Part shown: positions 1-27,690 of the stretch, one piece after another
How positions within the stretch are numbered: the stretch's first letter is position 1
Layout: each line of letters opens with the position of its first letter
The notes under the pieces: model-generated
What the model was told of the DNA's origin: nothing
The model's database searches: none
The model's input: the letters and a program-made list of their open reading frames with translations, nothing else
Position numbers and translations under genes: made by a program
From: a bacterium
GTDB lineage: Bacteria; Sysuimicrobiota; Sysuimicrobiia; Sysuimicrobiales; Kaftiobacteriaceae
NCBI GenBank assembly: GCA_044868695.1
Contig: JBIOWP010000027.1
Coordinates: 1 to 40,624 of the forward strand
Direction of reading: 5' to 3'
DNA: 40,624 bases

Positions 1-1800
1 TCAGAAGGGCGCCCCGAGCGACAGCCAGGTCTGGCGGCTGCCGTCCGCGGCCCATGCCAGGTCGATCCGGATGGGGCCCAGCGGGGTGTTGATGGCCAGC
101 CCGACGCCGTATCCCACGTCGGGATTCACAAACGACATCGGTGCGTTGCCGGCGTCAACGAAGAGGGCCATGGCCACGTCCTGGAACGACGGAACCAGTG
201 CGCTGAGCGGGAACCGGTACTCCAGGTTAGCGACCACGATGCTGTTCTCACGGATGAATCCCGATGGCCGTGCGCGCAGGGTGCTGGGGCCGCCGAATAC
301 GAACCGCTCCTGCAGGGGCAAATTCCCCGTCGCCGCGCCGAGGAACACGCGCCCGACAATGACGCTCTCCTTCCCCACCGGAAACAAGCGCTGGTAGTCG
401 ATGGTGTACTTCGTAAAGTCGAAGTCGCTCCCGAACGACACAATCGCCAGCTCGCCAGACGCCGCCACGCGATCGCCCGAGGTGGGGTTGAAGCGCGCAT
501 TTCTGGTGTCCCGCACGACGCCCAACTGCAGGCTGACAACGCGCCCGGGGACGAACCCTGACGGCGGCGGGGAGATAGGACTGCCGGGATCATTAGGGTC
601 GATCGGCAGCAGCGTGATCTCGGAGCGCTCGCTCCGCAGCCGGATCGATCCGGTCGTGGCGCCGTCGAACGGCCGGCTGAACGCGAGGATGGCGCCGTCG
701 CGCTGAAGGCTGTACCGCGACTGCACCGCGCCCAGCACATCGTACTCCTGTTCCACCGACGCGCGCGAGAACAGGCTGAGGTCGAGCGCGGTCGCCGAGT
801 CATCCAGGAACGGCTCGGTGAAACTGACTTCGTAGTTGAGCTGCTGGTCTGAGCCGGTCTGCACCGCGCGTTCCGCCCGCACGGCGAAGGACTGCGCGCG
901 GCCCTGCCAGTTGCGGTCGCGGTACTCGACGAATCCGAGCAACCCGTCACGGGAACTGTATCCCAGTCCGAACGACGCCTGCGCGGTGCGGGCCTCCTTG
1001 ACCTCGATCACAATCACCGCGGCGTCGGCCGTGCTCCCCGGTTCCGGACGCGCCCGGATCGACTCGAACAGTCCCGTATCGAACAGCCGCTGAAGGTCGC
1101 GCTGCAGCGCGTTCACGTCGAACGGGCCCCCGGGTCGGATTTCCCGGACGTAGCGCTGCGCGATGGCGGGGTGGGTCTTCTGGAGTCCCTCGAACCGCAC
1201 GCGTTCGATCGCGCCCTCAGAGATCCTGACTCGGAGGCGCGCCTGGTCGGGGCGGTCCGCGGGGAGGATTCCAAGATCGGCGACGCGGGCGAGCGCAAAT
1301 CCCTTCTCCTCGTACAGCTTCTGGACGGCCTGGGCGCCGTCGCGCATCTTCCTCAGGTTCAGCACCTCACCCACCGGGAGGCCCAGCGCCGCCTGGATCT
1401 CGGCGGCGTTGAGCACGGTGTTGCCCTCGATCACGACCTCCGCGATGACCGGGTTCTCGGTGACGAGAAAGATGACGACCACGCCGCTCTGCTCCGATTC
1501 CAGGCGGGCCGACACGTCGGTAAACCAGCCCAGATCGTTGATCGCGCGGACGTCGGCGCGGAGCTTCTCGTCGCCATACGGCTCCCCCACTTTCGTTTCG
1601 GTCACGGCGGCGAGAATCGTGTCGGCGGAGATGCGCGCATTCCCGGCGACGTCAATCCGCGTCACCACGGGGGCCGGCTGCTGCGGGGCGGGCGACGCAG
1701 GCTGGGAGCCCGGCTGCGTGAATCCCGGCACCGGCAAGACGGCCAGGCACACAAAGAGCGCGGCGGCCAGGATCGGACGGCGTGCAGAACGGCTCACCAT
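1..1800 (-). CDS. bamA: Omp85/BamA-family outer membrane protein with about 3 POTRA domains
   Basis: Sec signal peptide; three POTRA-like repeats (VTRIDVAGN, IAEVVIEGN, IERVRFEGL); barrel motifs GLGYSS, FVFGGPSTLR, TPLGPIRIDLA; C-terminal Phe; GAAGGAGG RBS before ATG at 1800. Could be a TamA-type paralogue. Confidence 0.88.
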   Translation of the reverse strand: MVSRSARRPILAAALFVCLAVLPVPGFTQPGSQPASPAPQQPAPVVTRIDVAGNARISADTILAAVTETKVGEPYGDEKLRADVRAINDLGWFTDVSARLESEQSGVVVIFLVTENPVIAEVVIEGNTVLNAAEIQAALGLPVGEVLNLRKMRDGAQAVQKLYEEKGFALARVADLGILPADRPDQARLRVRISEGAIERVRFEGLQKTHPAIAQRYVREIRPGGPFDVNALQRDLQRLFDTGLFESIRARPEPGSTADAAVIVIEVKEARTAQASFGLGYSSRDGLLGFVEYRDRNWQGRAQSFAVRAERAVQTGSDQQLNYEVSFTEPFLDDSATALDLSLFSRASVEQEYDVLGAVQSRYSLQRDGAILAFSRPFDGATTGSIRLRSERSEITLLPIDPNDPGSPISPPPSGFVPGRVVSLQLGVVRDTRNARFNPTSGDRVAASGELAIVSFGSDFDFTKYTIDYQRLFPVGKESVIVGRVFLGAATGNLPLQERFVFGGPSTLRARPSGFIRENSIVVANLEYRFPLSALVPSFQDVAMALFVDAGNAPMSFVNPDVGYGVGLAINTPLGPIRIDLAWAADGSRQTWLSLGAPF

Positions 1801-1885
1801 GCCTCCTTCACGAGACACAGATGCAGGACAGGCCGCAGCGGCGGCCCCGCGCACGATGGTCGAACACCACCTGACGGTACGGGGA

Positions 1886-2461
1886 CTATGGGCCGGTGGG
1901 TTCCCGCCGCAGCGCCCGCTCAGCGGTCAAGACGAGATCCAACAACTCAGGGACAGAGAGATGCAGCGATCCTCCGGTGGCCATGCGCGGACGGGGTTCG
2001 CCGGCCATCGGGTACGGCAACGGCCCGCCCGATGTTCCCCCGGCGGTAACCGGCGACGCCGGGACCGCACCCGGCGCGGTGACCGGGTGGACCGCCGGTC
2101 CCTGTGGAAACACCAGCGAGTCGAGCAGCGAGCCGGATGCCGCCGCCAGCCGCACGATCGGAGGTGCCGGCGCGGGCGACACCGAAGCCGGACCCGCGGG
2201 CCCCCGGATCGCCACCAGGAGCGCGGCCACCAGCCCCCCCGCCATCAGCGCAAGGGCCGGGCGCGCGTCCCGGCCTCGACGTTCCGCGTGGGGAACCCCG
2301 ACCGCCGCCAGCGCGTGGCGCACTTCGGCATCGGCCAGCACCAGCGTCAAGACGCCGCGGGCCACGTTGCCCTGCGCGCACTGCCGGCGCGCGCGGTCCA
2401 GCCAGCGCTCGGCAAACCCGATCCGTGCGATCACCTGTTCGCCGCTTTCAGTGACGCTCAT
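1886..2461 (-). CDS. Hypothetical single-pass membrane protein (candidate anti-sigma factor)
   Basis: Helical N-terminus, one hydrophobic segment (ALALMAGGLVAALLVAI), Pro/Ala-rich C-terminus; GGAG RBS; lies directly downstream of the sigma gene. Confidence 0.6.
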   Translation of the reverse strand: MSVTESGEQVIARIGFAERWLDRARRQCAQGNVARGVLTLVLADAEVRHALAAVGVPHAERRGRDARPALALMAGGLVAALLVAIRGPAGPASVSPAPAPPIVRLAAASGSLLDSLVFPQGPAVHPVTAPGAVPASPVTAGGTSGGPLPYPMAGEPRPRMATGGSLHLSVPELLDLVLTAERALRREPTGP

Positions 2462-2500
2462 CGCACCGCTCCCCTCTCGAGCGCGTGACATCCACAAATC

Positions 2501-3148
2501 CTAATATCCGTGTGCCTTGCCCGTCTGGTGCACGTCATCGAGGACCAATTGCCGGATGTGCGCGAGGGCTTGTTTGTGGAGGCGGTAGAAGTGTGACAGG
2601 CTGATCCGCAGGTCCGCGGCAATCTTCCGCGGGTCGCGCGATTCCACGTAGGCGGCCCGCAGGATCGCCCGCTCGCGCGCCGGCAGGCCCTCGATGGCGT
2701 CCCGCACCTGCGCCAGTATCGCGGCGTCTTCGACGCCACCCAGCGCGTCGTCGGACGCCGGATCAGCGAGCCGCGTGGCCAGCGCCATCTCCGCCTGCCC
2801 GTCCTGCTCCAGCGAATACTCGACCGGCCGGACGCGCCGCAGCGAGTTCAACACGCGGCCGCGGATCCGGTAGGTGGCGAACGTGGAAAAGCGGACCCCG
2901 CGCAGATGGTCGAAGCGCTCGACCGCCTCGATGAGCCCGACGGTCCCTTCCTGCAGCATGTCCATGAGCGAGGGGTCCGGCGGCCGGATCTGCATGACCA
3001 CTTTGAACACGAGCGGCTGATATGCCTCAATGAGGCGCAGGCGGCAGTCGATGTCTCCCCTCACGCGATAGTGCTCCCACAGCAGACGCTCTTCGTCTGC
3101 GGTCAGCAGGACGATGCTCTGCAGCTCTTTCAGATACTGAGTCAGCAC
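2501..3148 (-). CDS. Alternative sigma-70 family RNA polymerase sigma factor (regions 1.2, 2 and 4; region 3 short or absent)
   Basis: YLKEL..LLTADEE (region 1.2); DMLQEGTVGLIEAVERFD..RGVRFSTFATYRIRG (region 2); LPARERAIL..KIAADLRIS (region 4). GTG start chosen; the ORF is open to 3211. Confidence 0.9.
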   Translation of the reverse strand: MLTQYLKELQSIVLLTADEERLLWEHYRVRGDIDCRLRLIEAYQPLVFKVVMQIRPPDPSLMDMLQEGTVGLIEAVERFDHLRGVRFSTFATYRIRGRVLNSLRRVRPVEYSLEQDGQAEMALATRLADPASDDALGGVEDAAILAQVRDAIEGLPARERAILRAAYVESRDPRKIAADLRISLSHFYRLHKQALAHIRQLVLDDVHQTGKAHGY

Positions 3149-3190
3149 AGAGGGGGGACGCTCACACCTGCGAAATGATTTCCTGCCGAA

Positions 3191-3219
3191 GGTTCGCAGG
3201 CCGGAGGACAAAGTCCTGC
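3191..3219 (-). promoter_or_regulatory. SigmaH-like promoter candidate upstream of the sigma gene
   Basis: Minus strand GCAGGACTT-N12-TGCGAACC, similar to the RNAGGAWWW-N11/12-RNNGAAT consensus and to motifs at 9601 and 14791. Confidence 0.4.
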
Positions 3220-3232
3220 GCGCAAAACCGAC

Positions 3233-3306
3233 ACTGCGGGAGCCGGGATACGGGAGCAGATGACTGCAGTTTCGGATCCCTGATCCCAGATCCCTGATCC
3301 CGCAGT
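3233..3306. repeat. Inverted arrangement of 7-bp tandem repeats (hairpin)
   Basis: Left arm ACTG-CGGGAGC-CGGGATA-CGGGAGC; right arm GATCCCT-GATCCCA-GATCCCT-GATCCCG-CAGT; outer ACTGCGGG/CCCGCAGT are perfectly complementary; directly after the tamB stop. Confidence 0.8.
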
Positions 3307-3312
3307 TTCGCG

Positions 3313-6300
3313 TCAGTAGCGGTAGGCGATGCGGTAGAAAATGTCGTACGTCCCCTGGTTGTCCACGGAGAAACTCATCATGGTGATCGGGGTAAACCGG
3401 TACTCCAGCGACCAGACGTACCGGGGATCCACTCCGAATTCTGAGGTCATGGTCACATACAGGTTTCGTACAAGGGATTTGCCCAAGCGCAAGGTGAGGG
3501 GTCGCTCCGCATCATAGACGATGGTGAACTCTTCCAGACCGAACGCCTGCGCCATCGCCCGGCTCATCGATCCAAAGACGGCGGCGCCGACTTCCGCCTG
3601 GAGCACCGCCTCCACCTCGTCGCCGCGGAGCAGCCGTGTGACACCCACCCGGCCGGCCAGGCCGGCCAGGATTTCCTCGCGCGCCAGCGGGGGATCGGAG
3701 GCCAGGTCGACGACCAGCGCGTCCGGCGTGCCGTAGATGTGGAGGAAGACGCGGACCGTCTCCACCCGGCTTTCCTCTCCAAGGGCGTTGACCACCTGAA
3801 TCGTGGTTTCCGCCCTCGTGTCGACGTAGGGGGTCGTGGCCCGGAACTCCGCGAACGTCGCGTGTCCCTCCGTGAGGGTAAACGCGGAGTTGAATGCGGC
3901 AAATGTCCCGCGATCGGACTCCACCTCACCGGCGAGCCGGGGCCGCTGCCAGGTCCCGGAGGCGTGCACGCTGCCGTTCACCTGCAGCCGGAGCCGTCCC
4001 AGGTTGACCCACAACTCGTCGCCGGAAGCGAGCTCCAGGTCCAGCGCAGGGTCGAACCCTCCCGCTGGGCGCGCCGTGGGCGCAACCGACGGAATGAACA
4101 GGTCACCGTGCGACAGGGCCATGGACCCGCTGAGTGTCGGGTGCGCGACCGGACCATCCACACGGAGCATGCCGTCGGCGACCCCGTCGAAATATGGAGG
4201 GTATTGGAGGTGCGCCCCGTTCGCGTTGATCGTGAGCCTGACGCGGTCGGGCCTGAACCGCTGCAGGCCGATGGCCCCGGACAGCGCCAGCGTGCCTCCG
4301 CCGGCACGGGCTCGCAGGGTGTCCACCTGAATCTCGCCCTCCGCAAACAGCAGGCGGGCCTGCACGGCGGTCAGGGGCGAGGCCAGCCCGCGCAGCGCCA
4401 GCGTCCCGTCGGACGCCGTCACCTCGCCGGTCAGACGCGGCCGGGCGGGGGTGCCGGTGAGATGTATCTCGCCGGCCAATGGACCCTCTCCCTGCTCGAT
4501 TCGCTCCGTCAGAGCCGCCAGCAGGGTCAGGTCCGCGTCCACCAGCGACAGGCGGAGATCGATCGGCTGTGTCTCGTTCACGCGGAGCCGCATCAGGTCC
4601 AGCGGAAGCGTCCCTGTGATCTTCACCTTGTGGCGCTCCTGCTGCAGCAGCCCCTGCTCCACGTGAAGCTGTCCGTCCCGGTAGAATGCCTGCAGCACGA
4701 TACGGTCGAAGACGGCAGCACCCGCCGCGCCGGTGGTCACGCTCGCCGACACACCCATCACCGGATCCGACAGCACACCGCTCAGTTGGAGCGTAAAGTC
4801 CAGGTCCCCCCCGAGCGGCCGCGTCAGACCCGTCAGCGGGCGCAGGAGGTCCAGGGTCAGACCCTGGCCGCTGAGCTCCAACTCGGTGTGTCCGGCCAAG
4901 TCAAAGCGCCCGGCGCCGACCAGCCTCCCCTGGTCGGGTGTAACCGAGAGCGACCGCATGACAATCGCATGATCGGAGAGCGTGGCGCTGACGACCGCGT
5001 GCCGGATAGGATAGTCACCAAGGATCCCGTCGGCCATCTCTGCGGTGAGCGCCGCGGTCGGATTCCGCAACCGTCCGGTGATCGTCAGCTCCCCGTCCAC
5101 CGCGCCATCGACGCGCACCGGCGGCCGGACGCGCCCCAGGCCCAGCACGGTCGCGAGCCTCGCCCGCCGCGCCGTGCCCCGCAGATCCACCACGGCATCG
5201 TCACCCAGCAGCACCGCGCCCGACAGGGCCACCGTCCCGCCGCCGTGCGTCAGTGTCAGCGGGGCCAGCACCAGCCGGCTCCCTTGGTACCGCACGGTCC
5301 CATCGGCGCGGTCCAAGGGCTGCCCGTTCACACGCAGTGACGTCGACGACACCGTTGCCGCCACCGTCGGCGCAGCCAGGGTGCCGCCGAGTGTCCCGTC
5401 CACGTCGAGCGCTCCCACGATCCGGACGGTGTCATTGCGGAGCGCGGTGATATCGGCAACGTCGAGGTCCTTGGCCGCAAACGACAGGGCCAGCCTGCCG
5501 CGCTGATCGATGCTTCCGTGCATCGTGACGCGCGAGGCGTTGATCTCCAGCAGGGCATCGTCCAGCAGGAGGGTGGCCTGCTCCCAGCGGAACGCCGCCG
5601 CAACCCGATCCACGGGCTGACCGCGCACGAGGGCGTCCGCAATCGTGATCGTCCCGCCGGCCCGCGGGGCGTTGAGGGTCCCCGCAAACTGCAGCGTCCC
5701 CTCCACCGTCCCGGTGACGTCGACAGGAATTTTCCCAATATCGAGCAGCCGCTGCGCCGGGATGTGGCGCGCGCTCACCGTGAGATTCAGTCTCTCGGGA
5801 TCCGCCCACCGGATGTCTCCCTTCGCCTCATACGTGCCCTGGCCGTCCCGGAGCAGCAGCCCCCGTGTCTGCAGCCCGCCGGTCCCAATCTGCACCGGGC
5901 CACGGGCGCGATCGAACGGGAACGGTCCCAGCCGGCCATCGCGGGCGTCGAGCGCCCCCACGACCACGGGGGCGTCCGACGGACCGGTAACCCGGCCAAC
6001 CAGGTCCGCCGTGCCGGCCAACCAGCGGCGCGGTCCGGTGAGGTCGCCGATCGCCCGGAGGTTGACGTCACTTGCCACGAGGGTCAGATCAACGGTCCCC
6101 TCGCTGACCGCGCCCAACGCGTGCACGACGGTAGGGCCGCTGCGAATATCGACGCGATCCACGTCCACCACGCCGGGGGCGAACCCCAGAACGGCCTCGG
6201 CGCGATCAAAGGGCATCCCCACGACCCGGCCGCCCACCACCGTCAGCCGCGCGTGGCCGACGACGGCACCCGGTGATCCGGCGGCGGCCACGAATCCGGT

Positions 6301-7665
6301 GGTGGCTCCATGGAGTGGAACACGGCTCCGTGCAACGCCGCCGACGGAGGCGGCATCAACGCCGTCAAGACTGGCGAGGAGGAAGAACTCGCGCGTCGGG
6401 AGCGCGATGCGGGCGTACCCACGCGCGCGTCCCCCGTCCACGAGGGCATCGACATTGTCCAGCACCAGCAGACCGCCGTAGTATTGCACCCCAGTCGAGA
6501 GATCCGCAAACGTATGCCCGTCCGCGTGTCCGGCCGCGTTGGTGAGCGACCCCTCGACCAGCAGAGCGTCGAGCGGTCCCTGGACGCGGACTTCGCCGCC
6601 GGTTTCGCCGGAGAGCTGCAGGGCCGCATGCGAAAACAGCAGCCGCCGCAGGATCGCCAGATCCAGCGAGGGCGAGCGCACCGCCAGGTCGAGGTGCATG
6701 CCGGCGAGGTGCCTCACCTCACCGCGCACCCACACCGGCGAGGTCCCCACGGTCATCGCGAGCCCCTCACTGGCCACACGCCGGTTGTCCAGTTCCACCG
6801 GCCCCTCAATTCCTGAAATCGGGATCTGCTGGGGCATCAGCACCGCGCGGCTGTCGGACAGGCGGAGGCGTGCTCGATAGTCTGCCGCGGTCGCGACATT
6901 CCCCCGGGAGAGCACGACGCGCAGATTGCCGTCCACGGTGCCGCCGGTCCACCGCAGCCAGCCTACCCGGGAGAGGTACCGGCCCCAGTGGGCCACCGAG
7001 ACGCCTCGGACGTCTATGGCAACATCCACCACCCCGGCCGCCGGCACCGCCGTCCCCGAAAGATGCAGCAGCGCCGGAGTGCGCCCGTCCGTGTTCACGG
7101 CATCCACGTCCATGCGCAGCCGCGGTGAGGCCTGCCAGGACACGGTCCCCGTCACGCGCTCAAAGTGGGAGGTGAACGCGGCGGGGAGCTGCCAGGCGTC
7201 GGTGAGCACCAGCCGGCCCTCGCGGACCTCCACGGTTCCGGCAAACGCGCGTCCTGTCGCTGTCTGCCGCGGGATGTCGGGCAGGTCCCAGCGGCCATCC
7301 GCGCCGCGGGACAGCACGAGGAGCGGACGGTGGAGCTCAATCGCCGCCAGGCTCGGGGCCGGAGCGCGTCCGCGCAGCAGATCGGCGAAGAGGGTCAGAG
7401 CGCGAAACCGCAAGACAATGCGCGAGGCTTCGAAGAACGGTCCGGGGACGCCGGGCTGGGCAGCGATCCGGACGCCGTCGAGCACAATCCCGCGCAGCGG
7501 GTCGCCGGCCAGCCGCTCGACGCGGACCTCGCGGCCCAGGGAGCGGGACATCTGCTCCACGACGGTGGCCCGCAGGGCATGAGCCAGCGTCCCGGAGCCG
7601 GCCAGCCAGGCCAGGCTGACCCCGAGGACGACAATCAGGCCGATGATGAGAAGCGTGACGCGCAT
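3313..7665 (-). CDS. tamB: TamB/AsmA-like translocation and assembly module protein (DUF490-type C-terminus)
   Basis: 1450 aa; N-terminal membrane anchor; repeated beta-taco-like segments ending in G(T/S)xxxP; C-terminal DUF490-like region (LASDPPLAREEIL...LEYRF); near bamA. Confidence 0.88.
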   Translation of the reverse strand: MRVTLLIIGLIVVLGVSLAWLAGSGTLAHALRATVVEQMSRSLGREVRVERLAGDPLRGIVLDGVRIAAQPGVPGPFFEASRIVLRFRALTLFADLLRGRAPAPSLAAIELHRPLLVLSRGADGRWDLPDIPRQTATGRAFAGTVEVREGRLVLTDAWQLPAAFTSHFERVTGTVSWQASPRLRMDVDAVNTDGRTPALLHLSGTAVPAAGVVDVAIDVRGVSVAHWGRYLSRVGWLRWTGGTVDGNLRVVLSRGNVATAADYRARLRLSDSRAVLMPQQIPISGIEGPVELDNRRVASEGLAMTVGTSPVWVRGEVRHLAGMHLDLAVRSPSLDLAILRRLLFSHAALQLSGETGGEVRVQGPLDALLVEGSLTNAAGHADGHTFADLSTGVQYYGGLLVLDNVDALVDGGRARGYARIALPTREFFLLASLDGVDAASVGGVARSRVPLHGATTGFVAAAGSPGAVVGHARLTVVGGRVVGMPFDRAEAVLGFAPGVVDVDRVDIRSGPTVVHALGAVSEGTVDLTLVASDVNLRAIGDLTGPRRWLAGTADLVGRVTGPSDAPVVVGALDARDGRLGPFPFDRARGPVQIGTGGLQTRGLLLRDGQGTYEAKGDIRWADPERLNLTVSARHIPAQRLLDIGKIPVDVTGTVEGTLQFAGTLNAPRAGGTITIADALVRGQPVDRVAAAFRWEQATLLLDDALLEINASRVTMHGSIDQRGRLALSFAAKDLDVADITALRNDTVRIVGALDVDGTLGGTLAAPTVAATVSSTSLRVNGQPLDRADGTVRYQGSRLVLAPLTLTHGGGTVALSGAVLLGDDAVVDLRGTARRARLATVLGLGRVRPPVRVDGAVDGELTITGRLRNPTAALTAEMADGILGDYPIRHAVVSATLSDHAIVMRSLSVTPDQGRLVGAGRFDLAGHTELELSGQGLTLDLLRPLTGLTRPLGGDLDFTLQLSGVLSDPVMGVSASVTTGAAGAAVFDRIVLQAFYRDGQLHVEQGLLQQERHKVKITGTLPLDLMRLRVNETQPIDLRLSLVDADLTLLAALTERIEQGEGPLAGEIHLTGTPARPRLTGEVTASDGTLALRGLASPLTAVQARLLFAEGEIQVDTLRARAGGGTLALSGAIGLQRFRPDRVRLTINANGAHLQYPPYFDGVADGMLRVDGPVAHPTLSGSMALSHGDLFIPSVAPTARPAGGFDPALDLELASGDELWVNLGRLRLQVNGSVHASGTWQRPRLAGEVESDRGTFAAFNSAFTLTEGHATFAEFRATTPYVDTRAETTIQVVNALGEESRVETVRVFLHIYGTPDALVVDLASDPPLAREEILAGLAGRVGVTRLLRGDEVEAVLQAEVGAAVFGSMSRAMAQAFGLEEFTIVYDAERPLTLRLGKSLVRNLYVTMTSEFGVDPRYVWSLEYRFTPITMMSFSVDNQGTYDIFYRIAYRY

Positions 7666-7764
7666 GAGCCAGCGGCACCCAGCCGACGCCGGGAGTGGAC
7701 GGCGCCGGTCCTCTCCGAGACATTCCCTCGGCGCTGCCGGGGTATTCCCCCACCCGTCCCGCGG

Positions 7765-9570
7765 CTAGCGAATCAGGATGGGGATCTGGACCTCGCCCTG
7801 CACCACCCAGTCGGTGCGAACCATATCGCCGGCGAAGACATCGAACTTTAGGAACTCGCTGCTCTCCGGCGGGAGGCCAAACGGAATCAACTGCAGCAGG
7901 ATGTCCGTGCTCTTCCCGAAATCCTCGAACACCTGGATCGCGTCGGCCAGCGTCGCGGCGGTGCTCGGCGCGGGTTCCCCCAGGAGGAACTGCGTGAGCC
8001 GCTCCTGGAGCGAGAATTCCACGGGGAGCTGTTTGCCGGCTGAACTCACCACCAGGACCGTGGGGCCCCGCGGGTAGTTGCGCGGAATCGCCACCTCGAG
8101 GGTACGCGAAATGACCGTTTCTTCCTGGAACGGCCGCATCTTCAGCTGCACACGCAGCCGGTCGCCGGGGGCCACCTCGCGGCGCTCGACATCAACGTCC
8201 ACGATGGCCGCGGTGTGCCGTTTGGCGGACAGGCCGACCTCCACATTGATGTCGATCGGCTCGATCGACGCGAGATCGTTGTAGAACAGGAAATTCAACG
8301 CGTCGGGGAGCTCCAGGAGGGACGCCACGGCCACGTCGCGGCTGTTGTAAAAGACGTTCTCGCGCGTGATCACGCGCGGCAGCCCTTTCGCTCGAAGCGT
8401 CGTTTTGACCGAGGCCGTCCCCCCACCCAGAATCTGGTCCCGGGCGCGGTCGATGGCCGTGAGCGTCATGGCCGTCGCGAACAACTTGGCCAGGTCCTGG
8501 CGGCGCACGACCTGCATCCCCCGCTCGACCCGGCGGCCGGTGTCCTGGTCCACTACGGTGACGCGCACCGCAAACATGTGCGGCATCCGTCCCATGATAC
8601 CCCGGATGCCCGGACCGCGATCCTGGTCGATCTTCCCGATGAGCTCGCCGAGGTTCCCCTCCTTGAACGGACGCTCGAGGGTACGCACCACCGTGACAAT
8701 GTCGGAGGTCGTGAGGGCGTATTCGACGTCGCCCAGCTGCTCCCACGGATGCCCGCAGATGAGCATCTTGTCCCCCACGCGCAACGTCACCGTGCAGATG
8801 CCCCCGTAGCTCACATCGCCCCGCACCTGCAGGACCCCAACCGAACTCCCCCCGGTAATCGGCGCGGCCACAAATTTGGTCTGCGCGTCGTCATACTGCA
8901 GCAGCGGCTGCGCCGGCCCCAGGACTCGCTCGAGGAGTTGCATCGCCCGAGGAGAGAGCCCGGAAATCATCGCCGGAAAGGTCGCGGGGATGAACGCCGT
9001 CGTGCCCGGCAGTGCCGCCGCGTCAATACGCCGGGCCTGGTCCACGGTATCGGCAATCACGACGCGAGACACGCGCTGCCCGCCGATCCGCACCGGACGC
9101 GGGGCATCAAATACCCGCGGCCACGGCCCCTGCCCGGTCCCGCCAGGCAGGTCAAGCAGGGGCAGCATTTCCTCGATCGGCGTCCCCAGGGCGAGGTCCC
9201 GCTTGTCAGGTTGGAAGAGATAACCCGCGGACAGGGCGCCGGCCAGCCTCCCATTGATGAACAGCGGACTGCCGCTCATCCCGGCGGCGGTACCCCCGGA
9301 GCGGTCGATGACCGGACCGGAGACACGGAACAGGATGAGATGGCGCACGGGAATGATGCCCCCGCCGCCCCGGAGGATGCCGATGATCTCAATGGTGAAG
9401 TCCTCGATCTTCTGGCCCAGGATCACCGTGCGGCCGGTGCCGCGCATCCCGGGATGGATCTCCGCCAGCGGCAGGATCGGGGGGATCGCCGCCTTGGACT
9501 GAGCCCACCCCTGCAACGGCGCCAGCAGTACCGCCAGAAGCGCCGCTGCCACAACACAATGTCTTCCCAC
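7765..9570 (-). CDS. Secreted SpoIVB-like S55 serine peptidase with C-terminal extension
   Basis: Signal peptide; GTAAGMSGSP catalytic-Ser motif; ICGHP His motif; GGAGG RBS before GTG at 9570. Confidence 0.88.
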   Translation of the reverse strand: MGRHCVVAAALLAVLLAPLQGWAQSKAAIPPILPLAEIHPGMRGTGRTVILGQKIEDFTIEIIGILRGGGGIIPVRHLILFRVSGPVIDRSGGTAAGMSGSPLFINGRLAGALSAGYLFQPDKRDLALGTPIEEMLPLLDLPGGTGQGPWPRVFDAPRPVRIGGQRVSRVVIADTVDQARRIDAAALPGTTAFIPATFPAMISGLSPRAMQLLERVLGPAQPLLQYDDAQTKFVAAPITGGSSVGVLQVRGDVSYGGICTVTLRVGDKMLICGHPWEQLGDVEYALTTSDIVTVVRTLERPFKEGNLGELIGKIDQDRGPGIRGIMGRMPHMFAVRVTVVDQDTGRRVERGMQVVRRQDLAKLFATAMTLTAIDRARDQILGGGTASVKTTLRAKGLPRVITRENVFYNSRDVAVASLLELPDALNFLFYNDLASIEPIDINVEVGLSAKRHTAAIVDVDVERREVAPGDRLRVQLKMRPFQEETVISRTLEVAIPRNYPRGPTVLVVSSAGKQLPVEFSLQERLTQFLLGEPAPSTAATLADAIQVFEDFGKSTDILLQLIPFGLPPESSEFLKFDVFAGDMVRTDWVVQGEVQIPILIR

Positions 9571-9600
9571 TCGCCTGCCTCCCTCCCGGTCTGGTGTGGT

Positions 9601-9628
9601 GATTCCGCGTCCGCTCCTCAAATCCCGC
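9601..9628 (-). promoter_or_regulatory. SigmaH-like promoter upstream of the S55 peptidase gene
   Basis: Minus strand GCGGGATTT-N11-GCGGAATC. Confidence 0.55.
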
Positions 9629-9631
9629 ATC

Positions 9632-9708
9632 GGCACAACCTACACAAGCGACACAACTTCACGATGGAACCGGATTGTGTAGATTGTGTAGCTTGTGTAG
9701 ATTGAGTG
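9632..9708. repeat. Inverted arrangement of 9-bp tandem repeats (hairpin)
   Basis: GGCACAACC-TACACAAGC-GACACAACT (9632-9658) faces GATTGTGTA-GATTGTGTA-GCTTGTGTA-GATTGAGTG (9673-9708); TACACAAGC is the exact reverse complement of GCTTGTGTA. Confidence 0.8.
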
Positions 9709-9721
9709 GGTGTGGTTCGTC

Positions 9722-10021
9722 CTACTTGGGCTGCATTCGGAGGACGACGTCGCCCCGCTCGATCCGTTGACCGGCTCTGACCAGGACCTCGCGGACCACG
9801 CCGTCACGGGGCGCGCGGGCGGCCACGCCGACGGCACCGGTCAGGTCCGTCCGCACGTACACCAGCGGCTGAGCATCCTCCACCTGGTCGCCGGGCCGGG
9901 TGAGCCGGTCCTCCAAGACGACGCCGGCGAGGCTGCTCTTGACCTCCAGCAGGTCCGGCGGCGCGGCCCACGCCGCCGCACCGCCGGTCAGGATAGCGAT
10001 GAGGAATGCGACTGTCCGCAT
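9722..10021 (-). CDS. Secreted biotin/lipoyl-attachment-fold protein lacking the acceptor lysine
   Basis: Signal peptide ending AWA; barrel-sandwich hybrid pattern (PGDQVEDAQPLV..RAPRDGVVREVLVRAGQRIERGDVV); turn reads RTDL rather than ETDK/EAMK; GGAG RBS. Confidence 0.75.
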   Translation of the reverse strand: MRTVAFLIAILTGGAAAWAAPPDLLEVKSSLAGVVLEDRLTRPGDQVEDAQPLVYVRTDLTGAVGVAARAPRDGVVREVLVRAGQRIERGDVVLRMQPK

Positions 10022-10041: not shown

Positions 10042-11238
10042 TTACCCCGCAAACTCCTCCGGCAGATCGGTGCTGCGCCTAAAGTACCAACGCAGGACCT
10101 GCACGATTCGTTCGGCGGCACGGCCGTCCCCAAACGGGTTGTGCGAGTGGGCCATCGCCTGATAGGCGCCGGGGTCGGTGAGCAGCCGTGCGGCCTCGTG
10201 CACAATCCGCGGTCGGTCGGTCCCCACGAGCCGCATCGTCCCGGCGTCGAGCCCCTCGGGCCGTTCGGTGACCCGGCGCAGCACCAGCACCGGCCGCCCC
10301 AGCGCCGTCGCCTCCTCCTGAATCCCCCCCGAATCCGTGAGGATGAGGTAGGCCTGCTGCATCAACTGCACCCACGGACCGTACTCTGGCGGCTCGATGA
10401 GGCGCGCCCGCGCGTGCTCGTGCAGCACTTCGTGGACGGCGCGGCGGACGGCGGGGTTGGGATGCACCGAGAAGACCAGCTCGACGTCTGGGAACCGGTC
10501 GAGGAGATCCCGCAGCGCCAGGTAGACATCCCGCAGGGGCTCCCCCCAGTTCTCCCGGCGGTGGGTGGTGACCAGCAGCAGCCGCCGGCCGGCCAACGGC
10601 GGCACCCCAGGCACCGGCGGGAGATCGGGCCGGCGGCGCACTGCCTGCAGGGCATCGATCACGGTGTTGCCGGTGACGACGACCGATCGCTCCGGAATGC
10701 CCTCGCTCAACAGGTTCCGCTTCGCCCGGGGAGTCGGCGCGAAGTGCAGATCGGCCAGGACCGAGGTCATGCGACGGTTCAGCTCCTCCGGAAACGGCTG
10801 GTACTTGTCATGGGTCCGCAGGCCGGCTTCGACATGCCCGATGGGAATCCGATGATAGTAGGCGGCGAGGGCGCCGATGAAGGTGGTGTGGGCATCGCCC
10901 TGGACCAGCACCATCTCGGGCCGGCGCTCCTCCAGGACGCGGTACAGTCCGGCCAGCGAGCGGGTGGCGATGTCTGCGAGGGACTGCTCGGGCAGCATGA
11001 TATTCAGATCAACGTCGACCGTGATGCCGAACAGCCGGGTCACCTGGTCGAGCATCTCCCGGTGCTGGCCGGTTGCGACGACGACGGGAACGAAGTCGGG
11101 GGTGTCGAGCAGACGCTGCACCACCGGCGCCATCTTCAGCGCCTCCGGTCGTGTGCCGAAAATCGTCATCACTGGGACGCGTCCCGCGGATACGGGCGCG
11201 CGGGCAACGAGGGGCTGCGGCTCGATCAGGGTCGCCAT
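10042..11238 (-). CDS. wecB: UDP-N-acetylglucosamine 2-epimerase (non-hydrolysing)
   Basis: FGTRPEALK, TGQHREML, HVEAGLRT, PFPEELNR, TDSGGIQEEA, NPFGDG motifs. Confidence 0.96.
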   Translation of the reverse strand: MATLIEPQPLVARAPVSAGRVPVMTIFGTRPEALKMAPVVQRLLDTPDFVPVVVATGQHREMLDQVTRLFGITVDVDLNIMLPEQSLADIATRSLAGLYRVLEERRPEMVLVQGDAHTTFIGALAAYYHRIPIGHVEAGLRTHDKYQPFPEELNRRMTSVLADLHFAPTPRAKRNLLSEGIPERSVVVTGNTVIDALQAVRRRPDLPPVPGVPPLAGRRLLLVTTHRRENWGEPLRDVYLALRDLLDRFPDVELVFSVHPNPAVRRAVHEVLHEHARARLIEPPEYGPWVQLMQQAYLILTDSGGIQEEATALGRPVLVLRRVTERPEGLDAGTMRLVGTDRPRIVHEAARLLTDPGAYQAMAHSHNPFGDGRAAERIVQVLRWYFRRSTDLPEEFAG

Positions 11239-11266
11239 GGTCCCGCCCCCGCCGGATCCGGCGCGT

Positions 11267-12394
11267 TCAATGCGATTTGGCGGGATCGGCCAGTTCCGGA
11301 GCGCGGGCCTTCTGCAGGCGGAGGAGACCGAGACGCCAGGCCAGCATCCCGAGCAGGACGATGATCGCCGCCAAGAGGATCAGCGACGGCGTCCGGCTGA
11401 TCCCGGCCACCGCCAGGGCGCCGAAGCCGAACGTCGCGGACAGCAGCCACAGGAGGAAGACGACCTGCCGCTGGGACAGGCCACGGTCGAGCAGGCGGTG
11501 GTGCAGGTGCCCGCGGTCGGGATCGAAGATCGACACGCCGTTGCGGTACCGCCGGACGATCGCGTAGCTCGTGTCCAGGATTGGGACGGCCAGCGCCAGC
11601 ACGGGCACCGCGAGGCTAAGCGCGGTGGCGGTTTTGACCAGCCCCTGCACGGCGGCGGCGCCGAGCAAGAAACCGAGCAGCATCGAGCCGGAATCTCCGA
11701 GGAACAAGCGGGCGGGGTAGAAGTTGTGGCGCAGGAACCCCAGGGCCGACCCGGTGATGGCCGCCGCCAGTGTCATCGTCACGACGTCGTGTCGATGGGC
11801 GGCGCCGCTGAGCAGTGTGAGGCCCGTGATGGCCGACACCCCCGCGGCCAGGCCATCCACCCCATCTATGGAGTTCATCGCGATGGCCATCGATCCCAGC
11901 CACACGATGGTGAAGAGTTTTCCGGCCATGCCCAGAGGCACGGTGGCGCCGGTGACGGGGTGCGTCACGAACGCCGTCGTCATGCCAAACCACACCGGCA
12001 GGCTGGCCGCGGCGTAGATGAGCGGGAACTTGACGCGGCCCGGCAGCGGCCTGATGTCATCCGCGGCCCCCAGCGCCGTGATGGCCGTCGCCCCCAGGAG
12101 AACGCCGATCAGCGGGAGCGCCACCGGCCGGTATGGGACTGCCAGGACCAGGTAGCGCGGCTCACGCACCAGCGCCACCGGCTGGTCCACCGGGAGCATC
12201 GCCAGCAAGGCCAGCAGGGCGCCCCCGAAGATGGCCAGCCCTCCCAGGCGGGGCACCGGGCGGCTGTGGATGTGCCGGCCGCCGGGCGGCGTGACCGCAC
12301 CCAGACGCCGCGCCACCCAGCCCATCTCATATGCGATCGCGTATGTGCAAAGCAGCGCGAGGACGCCGGCGATGACATAGGGAGGGATGTGCAT
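11267..12394 (-). CDS. Undecaprenyl-phosphate GlcNAc-1-phosphate transferase (WecA/TagO, MraY family)
   Basis: Polytopic membrane protein; PRLGGLAI, GAADD, NSIDGVDGLA, FLGDSGS, DRGHLHHRL motifs. TAGAAT 6 nt before the ATG suggests a leaderless mRNA. Confidence 0.92.
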   Translation of the reverse strand: MHIPPYVIAGVLALLCTYAIAYEMGWVARRLGAVTPPGGRHIHSRPVPRLGGLAIFGGALLALLAMLPVDQPVALVREPRYLVLAVPYRPVALPLIGVLLGATAITALGAADDIRPLPGRVKFPLIYAAASLPVWFGMTTAFVTHPVTGATVPLGMAGKLFTIVWLGSMAIAMNSIDGVDGLAAGVSAITGLTLLSGAAHRHDVVTMTLAAAITGSALGFLRHNFYPARLFLGDSGSMLLGFLLGAAAVQGLVKTATALSLAVPVLALAVPILDTSYAIVRRYRNGVSIFDPDRGHLHHRLLDRGLSQRQVVFLLWLLSATFGFGALAVAGISRTPSLILLAAIIVLLGMLAWRLGLLRLQKARAPELADPAKSH

Positions 12395-12431
12395 GGTCCT
12401 ATTCTACGCGCCTGCCCGACGGCGCGACAGC

Positions 12432-13427
12432 TTAGTCAAAGAGTTGGCTCACCGACCTGTCCTCATGGATGCGGCGGATGGCCTCCGCCAGCAGCGGGGC
12501 TACCGACAGGACGCTGAACTTGTCGGTGATCTTCTCCGGCGTCAAGGGAATCGTGTTGGTGACGACCAGCTCCTGGATGGGGCTGCCGGTGATCCGCTGG
12601 ACGGCCGGACCCGACAACAAGGCGTGTGTCGCGCAGGCGTAGACGGCCGTCACGCCCCGCTTGAGCAGCGCCTGGGCGCCCACCGTCAGCGTGCCGGCGG
12701 TGTCGACGATGTCGTCGACGATGATAGCCGTCTTGCGGTGCACCTTGCCGATGACGTGGACGACCTCCTTCACTTGATTCGGGCGGTCGCGCCGCTTGTC
12801 GATGATGGCGATCGGTGCCCCGAGCTGCTTGGCGAACTCCCGTGCCCGCGGCACGCCGCCCACATCGGGCGAGACCACCACAAGATTCTCCAGACCCTTG
12901 CGGGCGATGTAGTCGCCCAGGATCATCCGCGCCGGCAGATGGTCGAGCGGGATGTCGAAAAATCCCCAGATCTGCCCCGCGTGCAGGTCCACGGTCAGGA
13001 TGCGCTGGCAGCCGGCCGAGGTGAGAAGGTTCGCCACCAGTTTGGCGGAGATCGGTTCCCTCGGCCGCATCTTTCGGTCCTGGCGCGCGTAGCCGAAGTA
13101 GGGAATGACGGCGGTGATGCGATCGGCGGATGCCCGGCGCAGCGCGTCGGTGATCACCAGCAGTTCCATCAGGCGTTCGTTCACCGGCGGACTGGTCGGC
13201 TGGATGACGAACACGTCCTCGCCGCGGACGCTCTCCTCGATCCGCACGCCGATCTCGCCGTCGGCGAAGCGAAACGTGCTCATCTCGGCCAGGGGCACGT
13301 CCAGGGTGGCCGCGATCTCCTGGGCCAGCGCCGGGTTGCCGCCGCCGGTAAACAGCTTCAGGCGGCGCCCGCCGGCCGCGGACGTGCGGGCGGCGGATTC
13401 CTCAACGTTGAGGATTTGCCGTGACAT
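12432..13427 (-). CDS. prs: Ribose-phosphate pyrophosphokinase
   Basis: FADGEI, PYFGYARQDRK, DLHAGQI, VDDIVDTAGT motifs; follows glmU with a 26-bp overlap. Confidence 0.97.
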   Translation of the reverse strand: MSRQILNVEESAARTSAAGGRRLKLFTGGGNPALAQEIAATLDVPLAEMSTFRFADGEIGVRIEESVRGEDVFVIQPTSPPVNERLMELLVITDALRRASADRITAVIPYFGYARQDRKMRPREPISAKLVANLLTSAGCQRILTVDLHAGQIWGFFDIPLDHLPARMILGDYIARKGLENLVVVSPDVGGVPRAREFAKQLGAPIAIIDKRRDRPNQVKEVVHVIGKVHRKTAIIVDDIVDTAGTLTVGAQALLKRGVTAVYACATHALLSGPAVQRITGSPIQELVVTNTIPLTPEKITDKFSVLSVAPLLAEAIRRIHEDRSVSQLFD

Positions 13428-14763
13428 AGCGAATCACCCGGGCCGGGACACCCACTGCCACTCCGCCAGGAGGCACGTCTTTGTTGACCACGGACCCGGC
13501 GCCGGTGACGGCGCCCTTGCCGACGCGGAGAGGCGCGATCAGCATGGTATCGCTCCCGATGAATGCGTCATCCTCGATGACCGTGTGGTGCTTGCGCTTG
13601 CCGTCGTAGTTGCAGACGACCGTCCCGGCCCCGATGTTGACCCGGGCGCCCACGGTGACGTCCCCCAGGTAGCTCATGTGGTGGACTTTCGCGTGGTCCC
13701 CGACCGTGGCGTTCTTCAGTTCGGCGAAATTACCGATCTCAACCGACCGCCCGACCCGCGTTCTGGGCCGCAGGTGACTGTACGGACCAACCGTCGACCC
13801 CTCCCCAATCGCACTCTGTTCCACGCTCGAGGCCACGACGGTGACTGCGTCCTCCACCGTCGCATCGACCAGCCGGGCCTGCGGGCCGATCGTGCAGCGG
13901 GCCCCCACGACCGTTGTCCCCTCCAGAAAGGTCTGCGGCTGGATGATGGTTTCGCGCCCCACTCGGACCCCGGCGTGGACGTACGTGGAGGCCGGATCGA
14001 TGATGGTCACCCCCGCGTCCATCAACCCGTCCAGGATGCGAACCCGCATCGCCGACTCGACCGCGGCGAGCTCTTGTCGGGAGTTCACGCCCATCGTCTC
14101 CTCCGCCCCAGCGACGAGCGCGCCGACCTTCTCTCCCCGCGCCAGCAGCCAGCCGACCGTATCCGTGAGATAGTACTCGCCCTGGGCGTTGTCGGGCGTC
14201 AGGGCGCGCAACGCCTCCCGCAGCGCAGGCTGGCTAAACACGTACGTACCGGCGTTGATCTCCCGGACCCTACGATCCTCGTCGGTGCAGTCCGCCTCCT
14301 CGACGATCTTGATCACGCGGCGATCCGGGTCCCGGATGACTCGGCCGTAGCCGGTGGGATCGGGCACCTCCGCGCTCAAGAGCGCCGCGGCGGTCCCGGA
14401 GGTCTGGTGGAGGGTGACGAGGGCCCGGATGATGTCCGGCCGCAGGAGAGGCGTGTCCCCATACAGCACAAGCACGGGATGGCCATCGTCGGGAAGGTGA
14501 GGGAGCGCCTGCAGGGCGGCGTGCCCGGTGCCACGCTGCTCCCCCTGCTCAACGTAGCGGGCCTGTGGGCCCACGGCGTCGCGCACGAGACCGCCGCCGT
14601 GCCCGACCACGAGGACCGGCGTGGCGATCCCGGCCTGGTGGAGCGCATCGAGCACGAACTGAATGAGGGGCTGGCCGCACACGCGGTGCAGAACTTTGGG
14701 AAGGTCGGACTGCATCCGCTTGCCCTTCCCCGCCGCCAGCACCACGGCGTGCACGTGTTCCAT
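13402..14763 (-). CDS. glmU: Bifunctional UDP-GlcNAc pyrophosphorylase / glucosamine-1-phosphate acetyltransferase
   Basis: LAAGKGKRM..PKVLH, GTGHA, YGDTPL, EINAG, EYYLTD, hexapeptide repeats, NYDG. Confidence 0.97.
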   Translation of the reverse strand: MEHVHAVVLAAGKGKRMQSDLPKVLHRVCGQPLIQFVLDALHQAGIATPVLVVGHGGGLVRDAVGPQARYVEQGEQRGTGHAALQALPHLPDDGHPVLVLYGDTPLLRPDIIRALVTLHQTSGTAAALLSAEVPDPTGYGRVIRDPDRRVIKIVEEADCTDEDRRVREINAGTYVFSQPALREALRALTPDNAQGEYYLTDTVGWLLARGEKVGALVAGAEETMGVNSRQELAAVESAMRVRILDGLMDAGVTIIDPASTYVHAGVRVGRETIIQPQTFLEGTTVVGARCTIGPQARLVDATVEDAVTVVASSVEQSAIGEGSTVGPYSHLRPRTRVGRSVEIGNFAELKNATVGDHAKVHHMSYLGDVTVGARVNIGAGTVVCNYDGKRKHHTVIEDDAFIGSDTMLIAPLRVGKGAVTGAGSVVNKDVPPGGVAVGVPARVIRYVTANPQR

Positions 14764-15458: not shown

Positions 15459-15863
15459 TCAGGGTGGAGCGGCCGCGCTTTCCACGGCGCGAGGAGGCGT
15501 CAGCAGCGGTTCAATCTGGCGGGTCACCTCCAGTTCAATCGACGTCAGCCGGCGGACATCGGCATCCCCGAGAAATCCCGCCCGCCGGGCGAAGTGGATG
15601 TAGTAGCTCAGCTCGCCCAGGGCGATCGAAGCGCCCAGCAGCGTCCGGCGTGCCTGCCAGCGCCCTCCGCGCCGGGCGGCCGTGATCCCGGCCGCCACCG
15701 CCACAGCCGCCGCCCGCATGCGCTGGACGAGGCCGGGATCAGCCTGCATGAACTTCCAGGTCAGCCGGTAGACGAGGTGGGCCAGATCATCGGCCCGCTG
15801 CCAGGCGGCGAGGTCGCGGTGGGGCGGCGCGGCGAGTGCCACGCCCTCATTGTCGCCGATCAC
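15459..15863 (-). CDS. Four-helix-bundle protein (23S rRNA IVP/bAvd-like), divergent
   Basis: HRDLAAWQRA..LVYRLT..F..GLVQRMRAAAVAV..ALGEL...GFL pattern; the usual NIAEG motif reads GITAA. Start uncertain. Confidence 0.7.
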   Translation of the reverse strand: MIGDNEGVALAAPPHRDLAAWQRADDLAHLVYRLTWKFMQADPGLVQRMRAAAVAVAAGITAARRGGRWQARRTLLGASIALGELSYYIHFARRAGFLGDADVRRLTSIELEVTRQIEPLLTPPRAVESAAAPP

Positions 15864-23639: not shown

Positions 23640-23701
23640 CGTCACGGACGAGTATAGCGCACTACGGGTCACAGCGCTGTCACGCGATTCTCATGCTCCA
23701 G

Positions 23702-24253
23702 CTATCTGCCAATCTCCCCCGCCAGTACGGGCGTCCCCGGCCGAGGGTCGTACGCCCCCTTGTTGCCGTCGGACTCCAGCGTGACAACCACGGCGTTGTA
23801 GGGAGCGAGGCTGTTGGCGATCGAGAACGATCCGACGTAGGCGCGCATGCTGCCGGCGCGTGCTTTCAAGACACCGGTGCTCAGCGCGTACGGAATGTCG
23901 CGCGACAGCGCGGCGAACTCCGGGTTCCCGAAGGCGGCGCCGTATTTCTGGTCCGCGTCCGACGCATGGGACATACCGGGACCGCCCTTTTTCCCGGCAT
24001 CCACGACCCATCCCTCCAGGACGGAACCCATCGGGAGGCTCGTCCCGTCGGCCAACTGCACGGTGATCTGGACCATCCCTTTCTCGACGTCCACATCGGC
24101 GAATCCCGTAGCGCCCTGCAGCCCCGCGTTCCTCGCCAGCGGCGTGGGCAACAGCTTGACCCGCGTCATCATCATCGCCGCGTCGGACGAGGCGATACTG
24201 AAGATGACCAACACGACGGCCATTGCCGCCAGCCTCTCAAGTCTCCTGCGCAT
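23702..24253 (-). CDS. Secreted protein with an RskA (anti-sigma-K) C-terminal-like domain
   Basis: Signal peptide; EGWVVD and AVVVTLESDG..PGTPVLAG resemble RskA_C; the mature N-terminus starts with a Met-Met-Met run. Confidence 0.6.
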   Translation of the reverse strand: MRRRLERLAAMAVVLVIFSIASSDAAMMMTRVKLLPTPLARNAGLQGATGFADVDVEKGMVQITVQLADGTSLPMGSVLEGWVVDAGKKGGPGMSHASDADQKYGAAFGNPEFAALSRDIPYALSTGVLKARAGSMRAYVGSFSIANSLAPYNAVVVTLESDGNKGAYDPRPGTPVLAGEIGR

Positions 24254-24309
24254 GAGAACACCCCCGTCGGCCACACAGGCTCGGGACGCGCTGCGTCCCG
24301 GCGTGTCTC

Positions 24310-24363
24310 ATGCTAGCGACGCTGGATGAAGGGCGGATGAACAACGTGCTAAGGCTCGGTAAA
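24310..24363 (-). promoter_or_regulatory. Four 11-bp-period direct repeats plus -10 element (OmpR/PhoB-type box)
   Basis: Minus strand TTTACC-n5-TTAGCA-n5-TTCATC-n5-TTCATC-n9-TAGCAT. Confidence 0.65.
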
Positions 24364-24372
24364 GGTGGGAGA

Positions 24373-25416: not shown

Positions 25417-25444
25417 TCACCACCTCCGAAGTCGGTCCCGACGG

Positions 25445-25927: not shown

Positions 25928-25933
25928 CGCAGG

Positions 25934-26530: not shown

Positions 26531-26550
26531 CGACTCCTCCTACCGTCACC

Positions 26551-26582
26551 ACGCTACCCGCGTGTTGTGAAGATCGTGCAAA
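26551..26582 (-). promoter_or_regulatory. Two 11-bp-period repeats plus -10 element
   Basis: Minus strand TTTGCA-n5-TTCACA-n9-TAGCGT; same geometry as 24310-24363. Confidence 0.55.
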
Positions 26583-27674: not shown

Positions 27675-27690
27675 CTCAGGGACGGAACGG

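Follow-up and report, generated by a model that had tools for sequence, protein, structure and literature searches.

The sigmaE-RseA-DegS-RseP system of Escherichia coli is an envelope stress pathway, and the substrate of the S55 protease SpoIVB is SpoIVFA, which is not an anti-sigma factor. As reported in the parts of PMC5007114 and PMC5491611 that were covered, diderm Firmicutes carry an outer-membrane cluster (tamB, bamA, skp and lpx) that includes a gene with a SpoIVB domain. In this study, we analyzed a 40,624-nucleotide (nt) stretch of bacterial DNA, here called the window, which is one whole contig (JBIOWP010000027.1) of a 2.59-Mb genome that is 95% complete; one end of the contig is the stop codon of bamA. 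At this end, a sigma factor gene and a gene for a single-pass transmembrane (TM) protein lie between tamB and bamA, downstream of genes for an S55 protease and a lipoyl-fold protein. A sequence-only reading of the window proposed a single circuit of regulated proteolysis, in which the protease acts on the TM protein to release the sigma factor. At a probability of roughly 0.55, we favor two modules over one circuit, namely a sigma/anti-sigma feedback loop beside an independent outer-membrane protease with its small exported partner. Our literature search, which covered few subscription papers, returned nothing on the sigma/TM pair, on the promoter-like motif at their junction or on a permutation of S55, and the papers found did not describe the regulation of the outer membrane in diderm Firmicutes and related Terrabacteria. 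The locus offers specific candidates for a regulator, its inhibitor and a promoter, all of which can be tested in culturable Negativicutes.

All six open reading frames (ORFs) were located on the minus strand in the order first proposed, that is, lipoyl-fold protein, S55, TamB, sigma factor, TM protein and BamA. Their likely starts are 9570 for S55, 3148 for sigma (215 amino acids (aa), like its homologue P0217), 2461 for TM and 1800 for BamA. The features from tamB to bamA are the following.

3313..7665, minus strand: TamB, 1450 aa, PF04357 at E 1.7e-55
2501..3148, minus strand: alternative sigma-70 factor, 215 aa; ORF 2501-3211
2502..2532, minus strand: bipartite promoter-like motif, TGCA-N19-GGATATTA, with the -35 box at 2532-2529 and the -10 box at 2509-2502
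1886..2461, minus strand: single-pass membrane (TM) protein, candidate anti-sigma, 191 aa; likely start 2461
1..1800, minus strand: BamA/Omp85, about 599 aa, Omp85 plus three POTRA stretches; ORF 1-1854

Conservation and joint loss of the sigma and TM genes

The phylum of the window comprises 94 genomes of a single order; sigma is single-copy in 86 of them, and 40 loci were chosen from these sigma-positive genomes for their long contigs. The order tamB-sigma-TM-bamA is kept in all 40 loci. Of the loci that extend far enough, 36/36 have S55 directly upstream (a tandem pair in 17), and 35/35 have the lipoyl gene upstream. All species genomes were also scanned with a sigma-specific codon pattern, which yielded at least 120 stretches, with DNA for 80, mostly from Negativicutes and other Bacillota. 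Among the matches listed, 76 of 78 have tamB directly upstream of sigma and 73 of 74 have bamA downstream; TM comes after sigma in 73 of 74, with a gap of no more than 300 nt in 68 and of 300-327 nt in five. The six-gene order is far beyond chance, and the conserved synteny anticipated from the window was found across CSP1-3-like phylum genomes and many diderm Bacillota. Negativicutes have S55 further upstream, four genes from tamB, with mlaEFD and tolC between the two according to the part of PMC10665443 that was covered. In the two relatives scanned (2/2), an unknown gene of 428 aa comes after bamA, and then ompH copies, lpxD, and fabZ or lpxC. The co-location of tamB, bamA, skp/ompH and lpx that defines the outer-membrane cluster of diderm Terrabacteria is therefore seen with tamB and bamA in the window and the remainder in relatives. 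The 428-aa gene (L031:13149-14432 and L041:5891-7174) has no Pfam match, and a gene of similar size also follows bamA in most Bacillota loci. As for the range of the cluster, locus L114 is titled Fusicatenibacter and has a sigma-TM gap nearly identical to that of Dialister L091, which points to a bin that is mislabelled or mixed. S55-tamB-sigma is also found in L098, which bears the title Candidatus Nitrosymbiomonas, so that a further phylum may have to be added to this range.

In four phylum genomes, of which three (94-99% complete) share a genus, tamB abuts bamA and both sigma and TM are absent. The lipoyl gene is kept in all four loci. S55 is intact in the three same-genus genomes, which carry a second S55 elsewhere, while the fourth (G022) has a 135-aa C-terminal remnant (L195:9554-9961). 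Among 151 Negativicutes, sigma is present in 126 and S55 in 149, with S55 kept in 24 of the 25 sigma-negative genomes. For the 20 of these 25 that were listed, a TM match is absent in 18, the other two giving weak matches outside the N-terminal motif, and the tamB-bamA gap is at most 329 nt in all 16 assessable sigma-negative Negativicutes. Similarly, among 201 Bacillota, 47 have Omp85; S55 occurs in 46 of these versus 2 of the 154 Omp85-negative genomes, and sigma in 14/47 versus 1/154, the exception lying on a short contig. The 33 Omp85-positive, sigma-negative Bacillota have S55 in 33/33 and TM in 0/33. Both sigma and TM persist in two genomes where sigma has relocated. These are Selenomonadaceae genomes (L082, L145, L216, L217, L218) in which sigma has moved off the cluster and TM still precedes bamA, with sigmaA-like boxes upstream of TM as judged by eye. 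Collectively, sigma and TM are lost together across lineages, and the deletions and presence counts tie TM to sigma and S55 to the outer membrane.

The TM protein of the window has no match in Pfam or NCBIfam. Its family comprises 285 representatives at E up to 0.001, and its atlas neighbors are unnamed clusters of hypothetical proteins from Bacillota and Synergistota. A single hydrophobic stretch is present in 82 of 84 family members, with an excess of Lys/Arg on its N-terminal side in 80; in the window, the TM helix covers residues 69-87 (about 2257-2201). The cytoplasmic N-terminus carries a conserved, predicted helical hairpin of about 45 aa (WLxRA...G...L.LA.AE), which is the most conserved part of the protein, with nine invariant columns in 40 rows. 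Beyond the helix, a Pro/Ala-rich low-complexity linker leads to a short conserved C-terminal periplasmic segment (LIDLVLxAERxLR). A single TM helix, a conserved N-in cytoplasmic domain and a gene directly after sigma make up the layout of membrane anti-sigma factors of the RseA/RsiW/RsgI-like class. No sigma-TM fusion was found among proteins of 490-2000 aa, a size range that excludes the roughly 405 aa expected for such a fusion. Based on this topology and on the joint loss with sigma, the proposal that the TM partner is a membrane anti-sigma candidate gains ground, and the two proteins likely act as a sigma/anti-sigma pair.

Two points weigh on the other side. The genomes in these counts are related rather than independent, so that the numbers represent a few separate losses, and no known or recurring anti-sigma Pfam family was found among 41 TM members, the best being DUF3619 (2/41, E 0.02). 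The latter would also fit a TM protein that is sigma's first target, an inner-membrane-anchored accessory reaching BamA or TamB that was lost once the sigma for its promoter was lost. The Pro/Ala-rich linker with its conserved periplasmic end would suit such a trans-periplasmic tether, and in both genomes with a relocated sigma (2/2), TM still directly precedes bamA. However, the most conserved part is the cytoplasmic N-terminus, which a periplasmic accessory would not need, and TM was not found in any of the 33 genomes that are sigma-negative and BamA-positive; we regard an accessory as quite unlikely and favor a candidate anti-sigma.

The sigma factor itself matches regions 1.2 (weak, E 0.0035), 2 and 4, with no match to region 3, and its homologues begin directly at region 1.2 with no conserved pro-peptide. 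Its NCBIfam equivalog scores are all far below cut-off. We placed it in a tree of 42 rows, in which family labels were assigned by motif and only the best-scoring ones among the 15 region-2 matches of the genome were included. In this tree, the sigma factors of both phyla form one clade (100/99), outside SigH and the extracytoplasmic function (ECF) sigma factors and in an unresolved position among RpoD, FliA, SigE/K and SigF/G; none of the sigma factors of the window genome that were placed falls in the SigE/K or SigF/G clades. An ECF (group 4) identity was rejected on the basis of the region 1.2 match and the placement outside the ECF clade. Activation of the pro-sigmaK/pro-sigmaE type was likewise rejected, given the lack of a conserved pro-peptide and a clade separate from SigE/K.

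A promoter-like motif before the TM gene

The motif TGCR-N19-GGATAnTA lies just before the TM gene. In the window, it is embedded in the last sigma codons, 40 nt before the TM start, and is the best-scoring site of the genome, a site that belonged to the training set. Exact GGATAnTA occurs in 33 of 40 phylum junction windows and at five sites elsewhere in 1.45 Mb of the same phylum loci. The upstream box TGC(A/G) stands at a fixed 19 nt, with frequencies of 0.81 for T, 0.94 for G, 0.78 for C and 0.91 for A/G over 32 aligned sites. Where the motif runs over the last codons of sigma, the terminal Gly is encoded by GGA in 19/19 genes versus 18/175 internal Gly codons, and in nine loci the motif falls outside the sigma reading frame. 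This codon bias and the nine out-of-frame loci indicate that the constraint acts on DNA.

In Bacillota, a looser GAnTATA box is found about 35-45 nt before the TM start. A first motif search by expectation maximization on 176-nt Bacillota regions was noisy (mean 10.2 versus 7.5-8.4 in five shuffles). With position-limited, leave-one-out scoring and with near-identical rows removed before counting, a score of at least 8 was reached upstream of TM in 31 of 57 cases, compared with 4/54 for bamA, 2/58 for tamB and 3/57 for sigma, and before bamA in 1 of 14 sigma-negative genomes. We take the -10 box to be also similar to the SigG consensus. GATATTA, its form here, resembles the mother-cell box CATATTAT in the covered part of PMC3789822. 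Collectively, TGCR-N19-GGATAnTA is likely the cluster sigma's own promoter for TM-bamA and, in relatives, for skp-lpx.

Several aspects of the motif speak against this assignment. One phylum family keeps sigma and TM without the junction motif in 7/7 loci, and the moved-sigma genomes have it before TM in 0/2. In Bacillota, the motif is less pronounced: with a matrix built from the phylum of the window alone, it was found in 9 of 57 cases, and in some genomes sigmaA-like -10 boxes overlap with its TATA part. Moreover, no clear wider regulon emerged from the 94 genomes, with 39 off-junction matches versus 23 for a reversed control pattern. Of these 39 sites, 34 were inspected; most lie inside long open frames, and only the site before prs recurs convincingly. 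The genome of the window holds 47 GGATAnTA sites, within the range of 10-122 given by nine rearranged control patterns. The earlier claim that sigma controls outer-membrane biogenesis is supported insofar as the motif points to bamA and the outer-membrane genes downstream. As to the site before prs, two genomes of the family without the junction motif, which belong to one genus, have, at the head of the cluster, a TGCR-N19-GGATAGTA motif that precedes prs by 21 nt (L274:1951-2010 in G072, and L272 in G037). In G072, prs heads a prs-wecA-wecB-lipoyl-S55-S55-tamB-sigma cluster, and sigma would thus be autoregulatory there.

The missing junction motif in one family and in the moved-sigma genomes, in which sigma is nevertheless present, would be expected if the motif were read by another sigma, such as sigmaA with a G-rich extended -10, or by a transcription factor, with the regulon of the cluster sigma lying elsewhere; several Negativicutes sites do continue in a TATAAT- or TATAGT-like manner. 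However, the T expected at -7 for sigmaA is a T in only 1 of the 32 phylum sites, TGCR stands upstream at its fixed distance, the motif is weak before bamA when sigma is absent, and it appears in genomes without FliA. Another reader is in our view very unlikely. FliA in particular was rejected, because Megasphaera genomes with the cluster sigma lack it: four with sigma in the locus have no FliA over cut-off, and the three FliA-less Megasphaera genomes that were scored have a -10-like box with scores of 7.2.

With the motif assigned to the cluster sigma, a feedback loop can be proposed. The cytoplasmic hairpin of TM would hold sigma, while the tethered periplasmic C-terminal segment would read an envelope signal that leads to removal of TM, probably via site-1 plus M50 site-2 proteolysis. 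The window genome has five loci for M50 site-2 proteases and eight for other trypsin-like proteases (PF13365). Freed sigma might then transcribe TM-bamA-skp-lpx from TGCR-N19-GGATAnTA under envelope stress, so that the capacity for outer-membrane protein and lipid A would be raised. Finally, sigma would remake its own inhibitor TM, a negative feedback like that of sigmaE/RseA but built from unrelated parts. S55 would not be needed for the loop to exist and might at most be an optional trigger.

The S55 protease and the lipoyl-fold protein

The upstream part of the locus contains the following features.

9722..10021, minus strand: lipoyl/biotinyl-fold protein, 99 aa, PF00364 at E 2.6e-7
7765..9570, minus strand: S55 protease, 601 aa from the GTG at 9570; ORF 7765-9636
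9274..9276, minus strand: predicted nucleophile Ser of S55 (GMSGSP), invariant in 51/51 rows, S71 of A2, aligned with SpoIVB S378A in 9lnf
8749..8751, minus strand: predicted catalytic His of S55 (GHP), invariant in 51/51, H246 of A2
8620..8622, minus strand: candidate third triad residue Asp of S55 (QDR), invariant in 51/51, D289 of A2

The S55 protein matches PF05580 over the Ser half only, at E 2.5e-5 with 24.9 bits (cut-off 25; 25.8 bits when the genome was searched), and its TIGR02860 score of 25.7 bits is below the curated cut-off of 305.25. The invariant residues follow one another as Ser, His and Asp (GMSGSP at A2 71, GH at 246), and the domain order is Ser barrel, His/Asp barrel and a C-terminal Ig/macroglobulin-like beta domain, with an N-terminal hydrophobic stretch (KD19 2.03). 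The AlphaFold model has a mean predicted local distance difference test (pLDDT) score of 87.6, and the separately folded His half of 99 residues has 91.3. Based on these models, residues 1-118 align to the Ser barrel of HtrA/Deg proteases and to residues 311-426 of SpoIVB 9lnf (Z 7.0, root-mean-square deviation (rmsd) 4.4, 111 aligned). The His half aligns to 9lnf 108-301 (Z 5.3, rmsd 3.5, 90 aligned, 23% identity), an alignment that skips the PDZ domain, for which S55 has no Pfam match. In Foldseek, 9lnf is the top match of the His half (probability 0.99, E 0.09); the whole model gave no match at E <0.001, with 9lnf at rank 21 and probability 1.00. The predicted models thus give good support to S55 as a circularly permuted, PDZ-less relative of SpoIVB. 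This picture is tempered by the Z values, which are middling, and by the His half: it has no significant sequence-profile match to SpoIVB (hmmsearch, hhalign) and, as the two barrels are pseudo-symmetric, scores better on the second barrel of further chymotrypsin-fold proteases (Z about 7) than on 9lnf. The analogy to SpoIVB drawn by the sequence-only reading is loose, since S55 has no PDZ domain and a permuted barrel order.

The genome search found no canonical SpoIVB in the window genome, only the permuted form, while in spore-forming genomes permuted S55 coexists with canonical SpoIVB. The tandem S55 paralogues are diverged, about 36-58% identical to the window protein, and both copies have the invariant Ser, His and Asp (L042, L044, L047, L051-L054, L056, L057, L059-L064, L067, plus a frameshifted L048). 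In G287, G340, G366, G377, G409 and G437, the S55 His-barrel match is only 2-3 kb from the Omp85 match, and S55 appears to lie directly beside bamA without an intervening tamB.

In the single circuit, permuted S55, besides any general envelope role, would act as site-1 protease, cutting TM in its periplasmic part and thereby freeing sigma. S55 is exported, has the invariant Ser/His/Asp, shares the cluster in all 36 phylum loci and occurs in nearly every sigma-positive genome (125 of 126 Negativicutes). However, it is kept without the pair in 33/33 Omp85-positive Bacillota and 24/25 Negativicutes and is intact in 3/4 phylum relatives, which argues against a dedicated site-1 protease of the pair, the role that the sequence-only reading had given it. 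A protease with multiple substrates would give the same nested distribution, and in G022, where sigma and TM are gone, the pair loss coincides with the shrinkage of S55 to its remnant, a point that counts against two separate modules. On the other hand, S55 has no PDZ sensor, the eight other PF13365 loci could serve as site-1 protease, and four genes separate S55 from tamB in Negativicutes. We therefore consider the single circuit unlikely and favor an S55 protease that is independent of the loop. As S55 tracks Omp85, it likely functions in the assembly or quality control of the outer membrane. In Bacillota, it accompanies BamA almost universally (46/47), and it is a probable missing piece of ancestral outer-membrane biogenesis.

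The lipoyl-fold protein is a stand-alone barrel-sandwich fold with an N-terminal hydrophobic, signal-like stretch (KD19 1.66). By eye, none of 35 homologues has a Lys at either position after the conserved Thr of the turn. Two Lys are present elsewhere in the protein, so that the description "lysine-less" is correct for the modification site and not for the whole protein. A role as biotin or lipoyl carrier was rejected, since the turn has no modifiable Lys and the N-terminal signal-like stretch is at odds with the cytoplasmic location expected of a carrier. The protein travels with BamA/TamB, as S55 does, and likely shares the function in outer-membrane assembly or quality control. Directly upstream of its gene, after a 20-nt gap, is a co-oriented glmU-prs-wecA/mraY-like-wecB run (10042-14763), and all phylum loci have wecB ahead of the lipoyl gene. 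Elsewhere in the window, a four-helix-bundle gene (23S rRNA IVP family) lies at 15459-15863 between lipA and a RidA-family gene. The block at 22104-28428 holds three molybdopterin oxidoreductase genes, a DM13 gene, a 190-aa gene with a weak RskA_C match (E 9e-4) and a response regulator/histidine kinase pair.

Comparison with known systems

The diderm Firmicutes cluster is among the closest known systems, and the cluster reported here lies in a phylum outside Bacillota. By accession position, five genes from tamB, the SpoIVB-domain protein matches the COG0750 'hypothetical' marker column in the covered part of PMC5007114, and that of PMC5491611 treats the Veillonella homologue Vpar_0521 as one of the putative outer-membrane proteins whose function is unknown. 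In the table of PMC5007114, as far as covered, the accessions of tamB and bamA are frequently three apart, as would be expected if two unlisted genes lay between; Veillonella parvula has the adjacent genes Vpar_0526/0527. Neither a gene pair between tamB and bamA nor the motif or the permutation is mentioned in the covered parts of either paper, and the covered supplements of PMC5007114 do not mention sigma, SpoIV, S55, polymerase or peptidase.

S55 resembles SpoIVB (9lnf) in the GMSGSP Ser motif and the two-barrel chymotrypsin-like core, and both of its halves map onto 9lnf. In contrast, the order of the barrels is reversed, the PDZ domain is absent and extra C-terminal domains are present. 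Moreover, S55 has its invariant Asp (QDR) where canonical SpoIVB has Asn (KNT), as aligned by eye. In the crystal structure of SpoIVB, the nominal Asp363 is about 24 Å from His236 (PDB 9lnf; covered part of PMC12502668), and the invariant Asp of S55 may help to decide which residue completes the catalytic triad of S55 proteases, a matter of dispute. The permuted form also provides a link to the origin of SpoIVB. At the speculative end, and quite improbably in our estimation, the locus might represent an ancestral non-ECF envelope-stress system of double-membrane Terrabacteria, in which a separate sigma clade drives the genes for BamA, Skp and lipid A from a sporulation-like promoter and, bound by a new anti-sigma family, is released by permuted S55, a near-universal marker of the outer membrane; SpoIVB and its sporulation checkpoint would then have been derived from S55 via permutation and PDZ insertion.

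Among sigma factors, the cluster sigma is similar to SigE/SigK in being short and in lacking a region 3 match, and to FliA in the RIRG of region 2.4. However, it differs from SigE, SigK, SigF, SigG and FliA in that it occurs in non-flagellated genomes, forms a separate clade and has no conserved pro-peptide. Finally, the pair is similar to sigmaE/RseA in that the sigma gene is followed by the gene of a single-pass, N-in membrane protein, and to the sigmaE pathway in the predicted bamA/skp/lpxD regulon and in the chymotrypsin-fold and M50 proteases of the window genome. In contrast to sigmaE, the cluster sigma is not an ECF factor, matches region 1.2 and has its own clade beside RpoD, FliA, SigE/K and SigF/G; in contrast to RseA, TM has no RseA domain. 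In contrast to the sigmaE locus, the pair lies inside the bamA cluster, and the motif stands before the TM gene, downstream of the sigma gene and not upstream of it.

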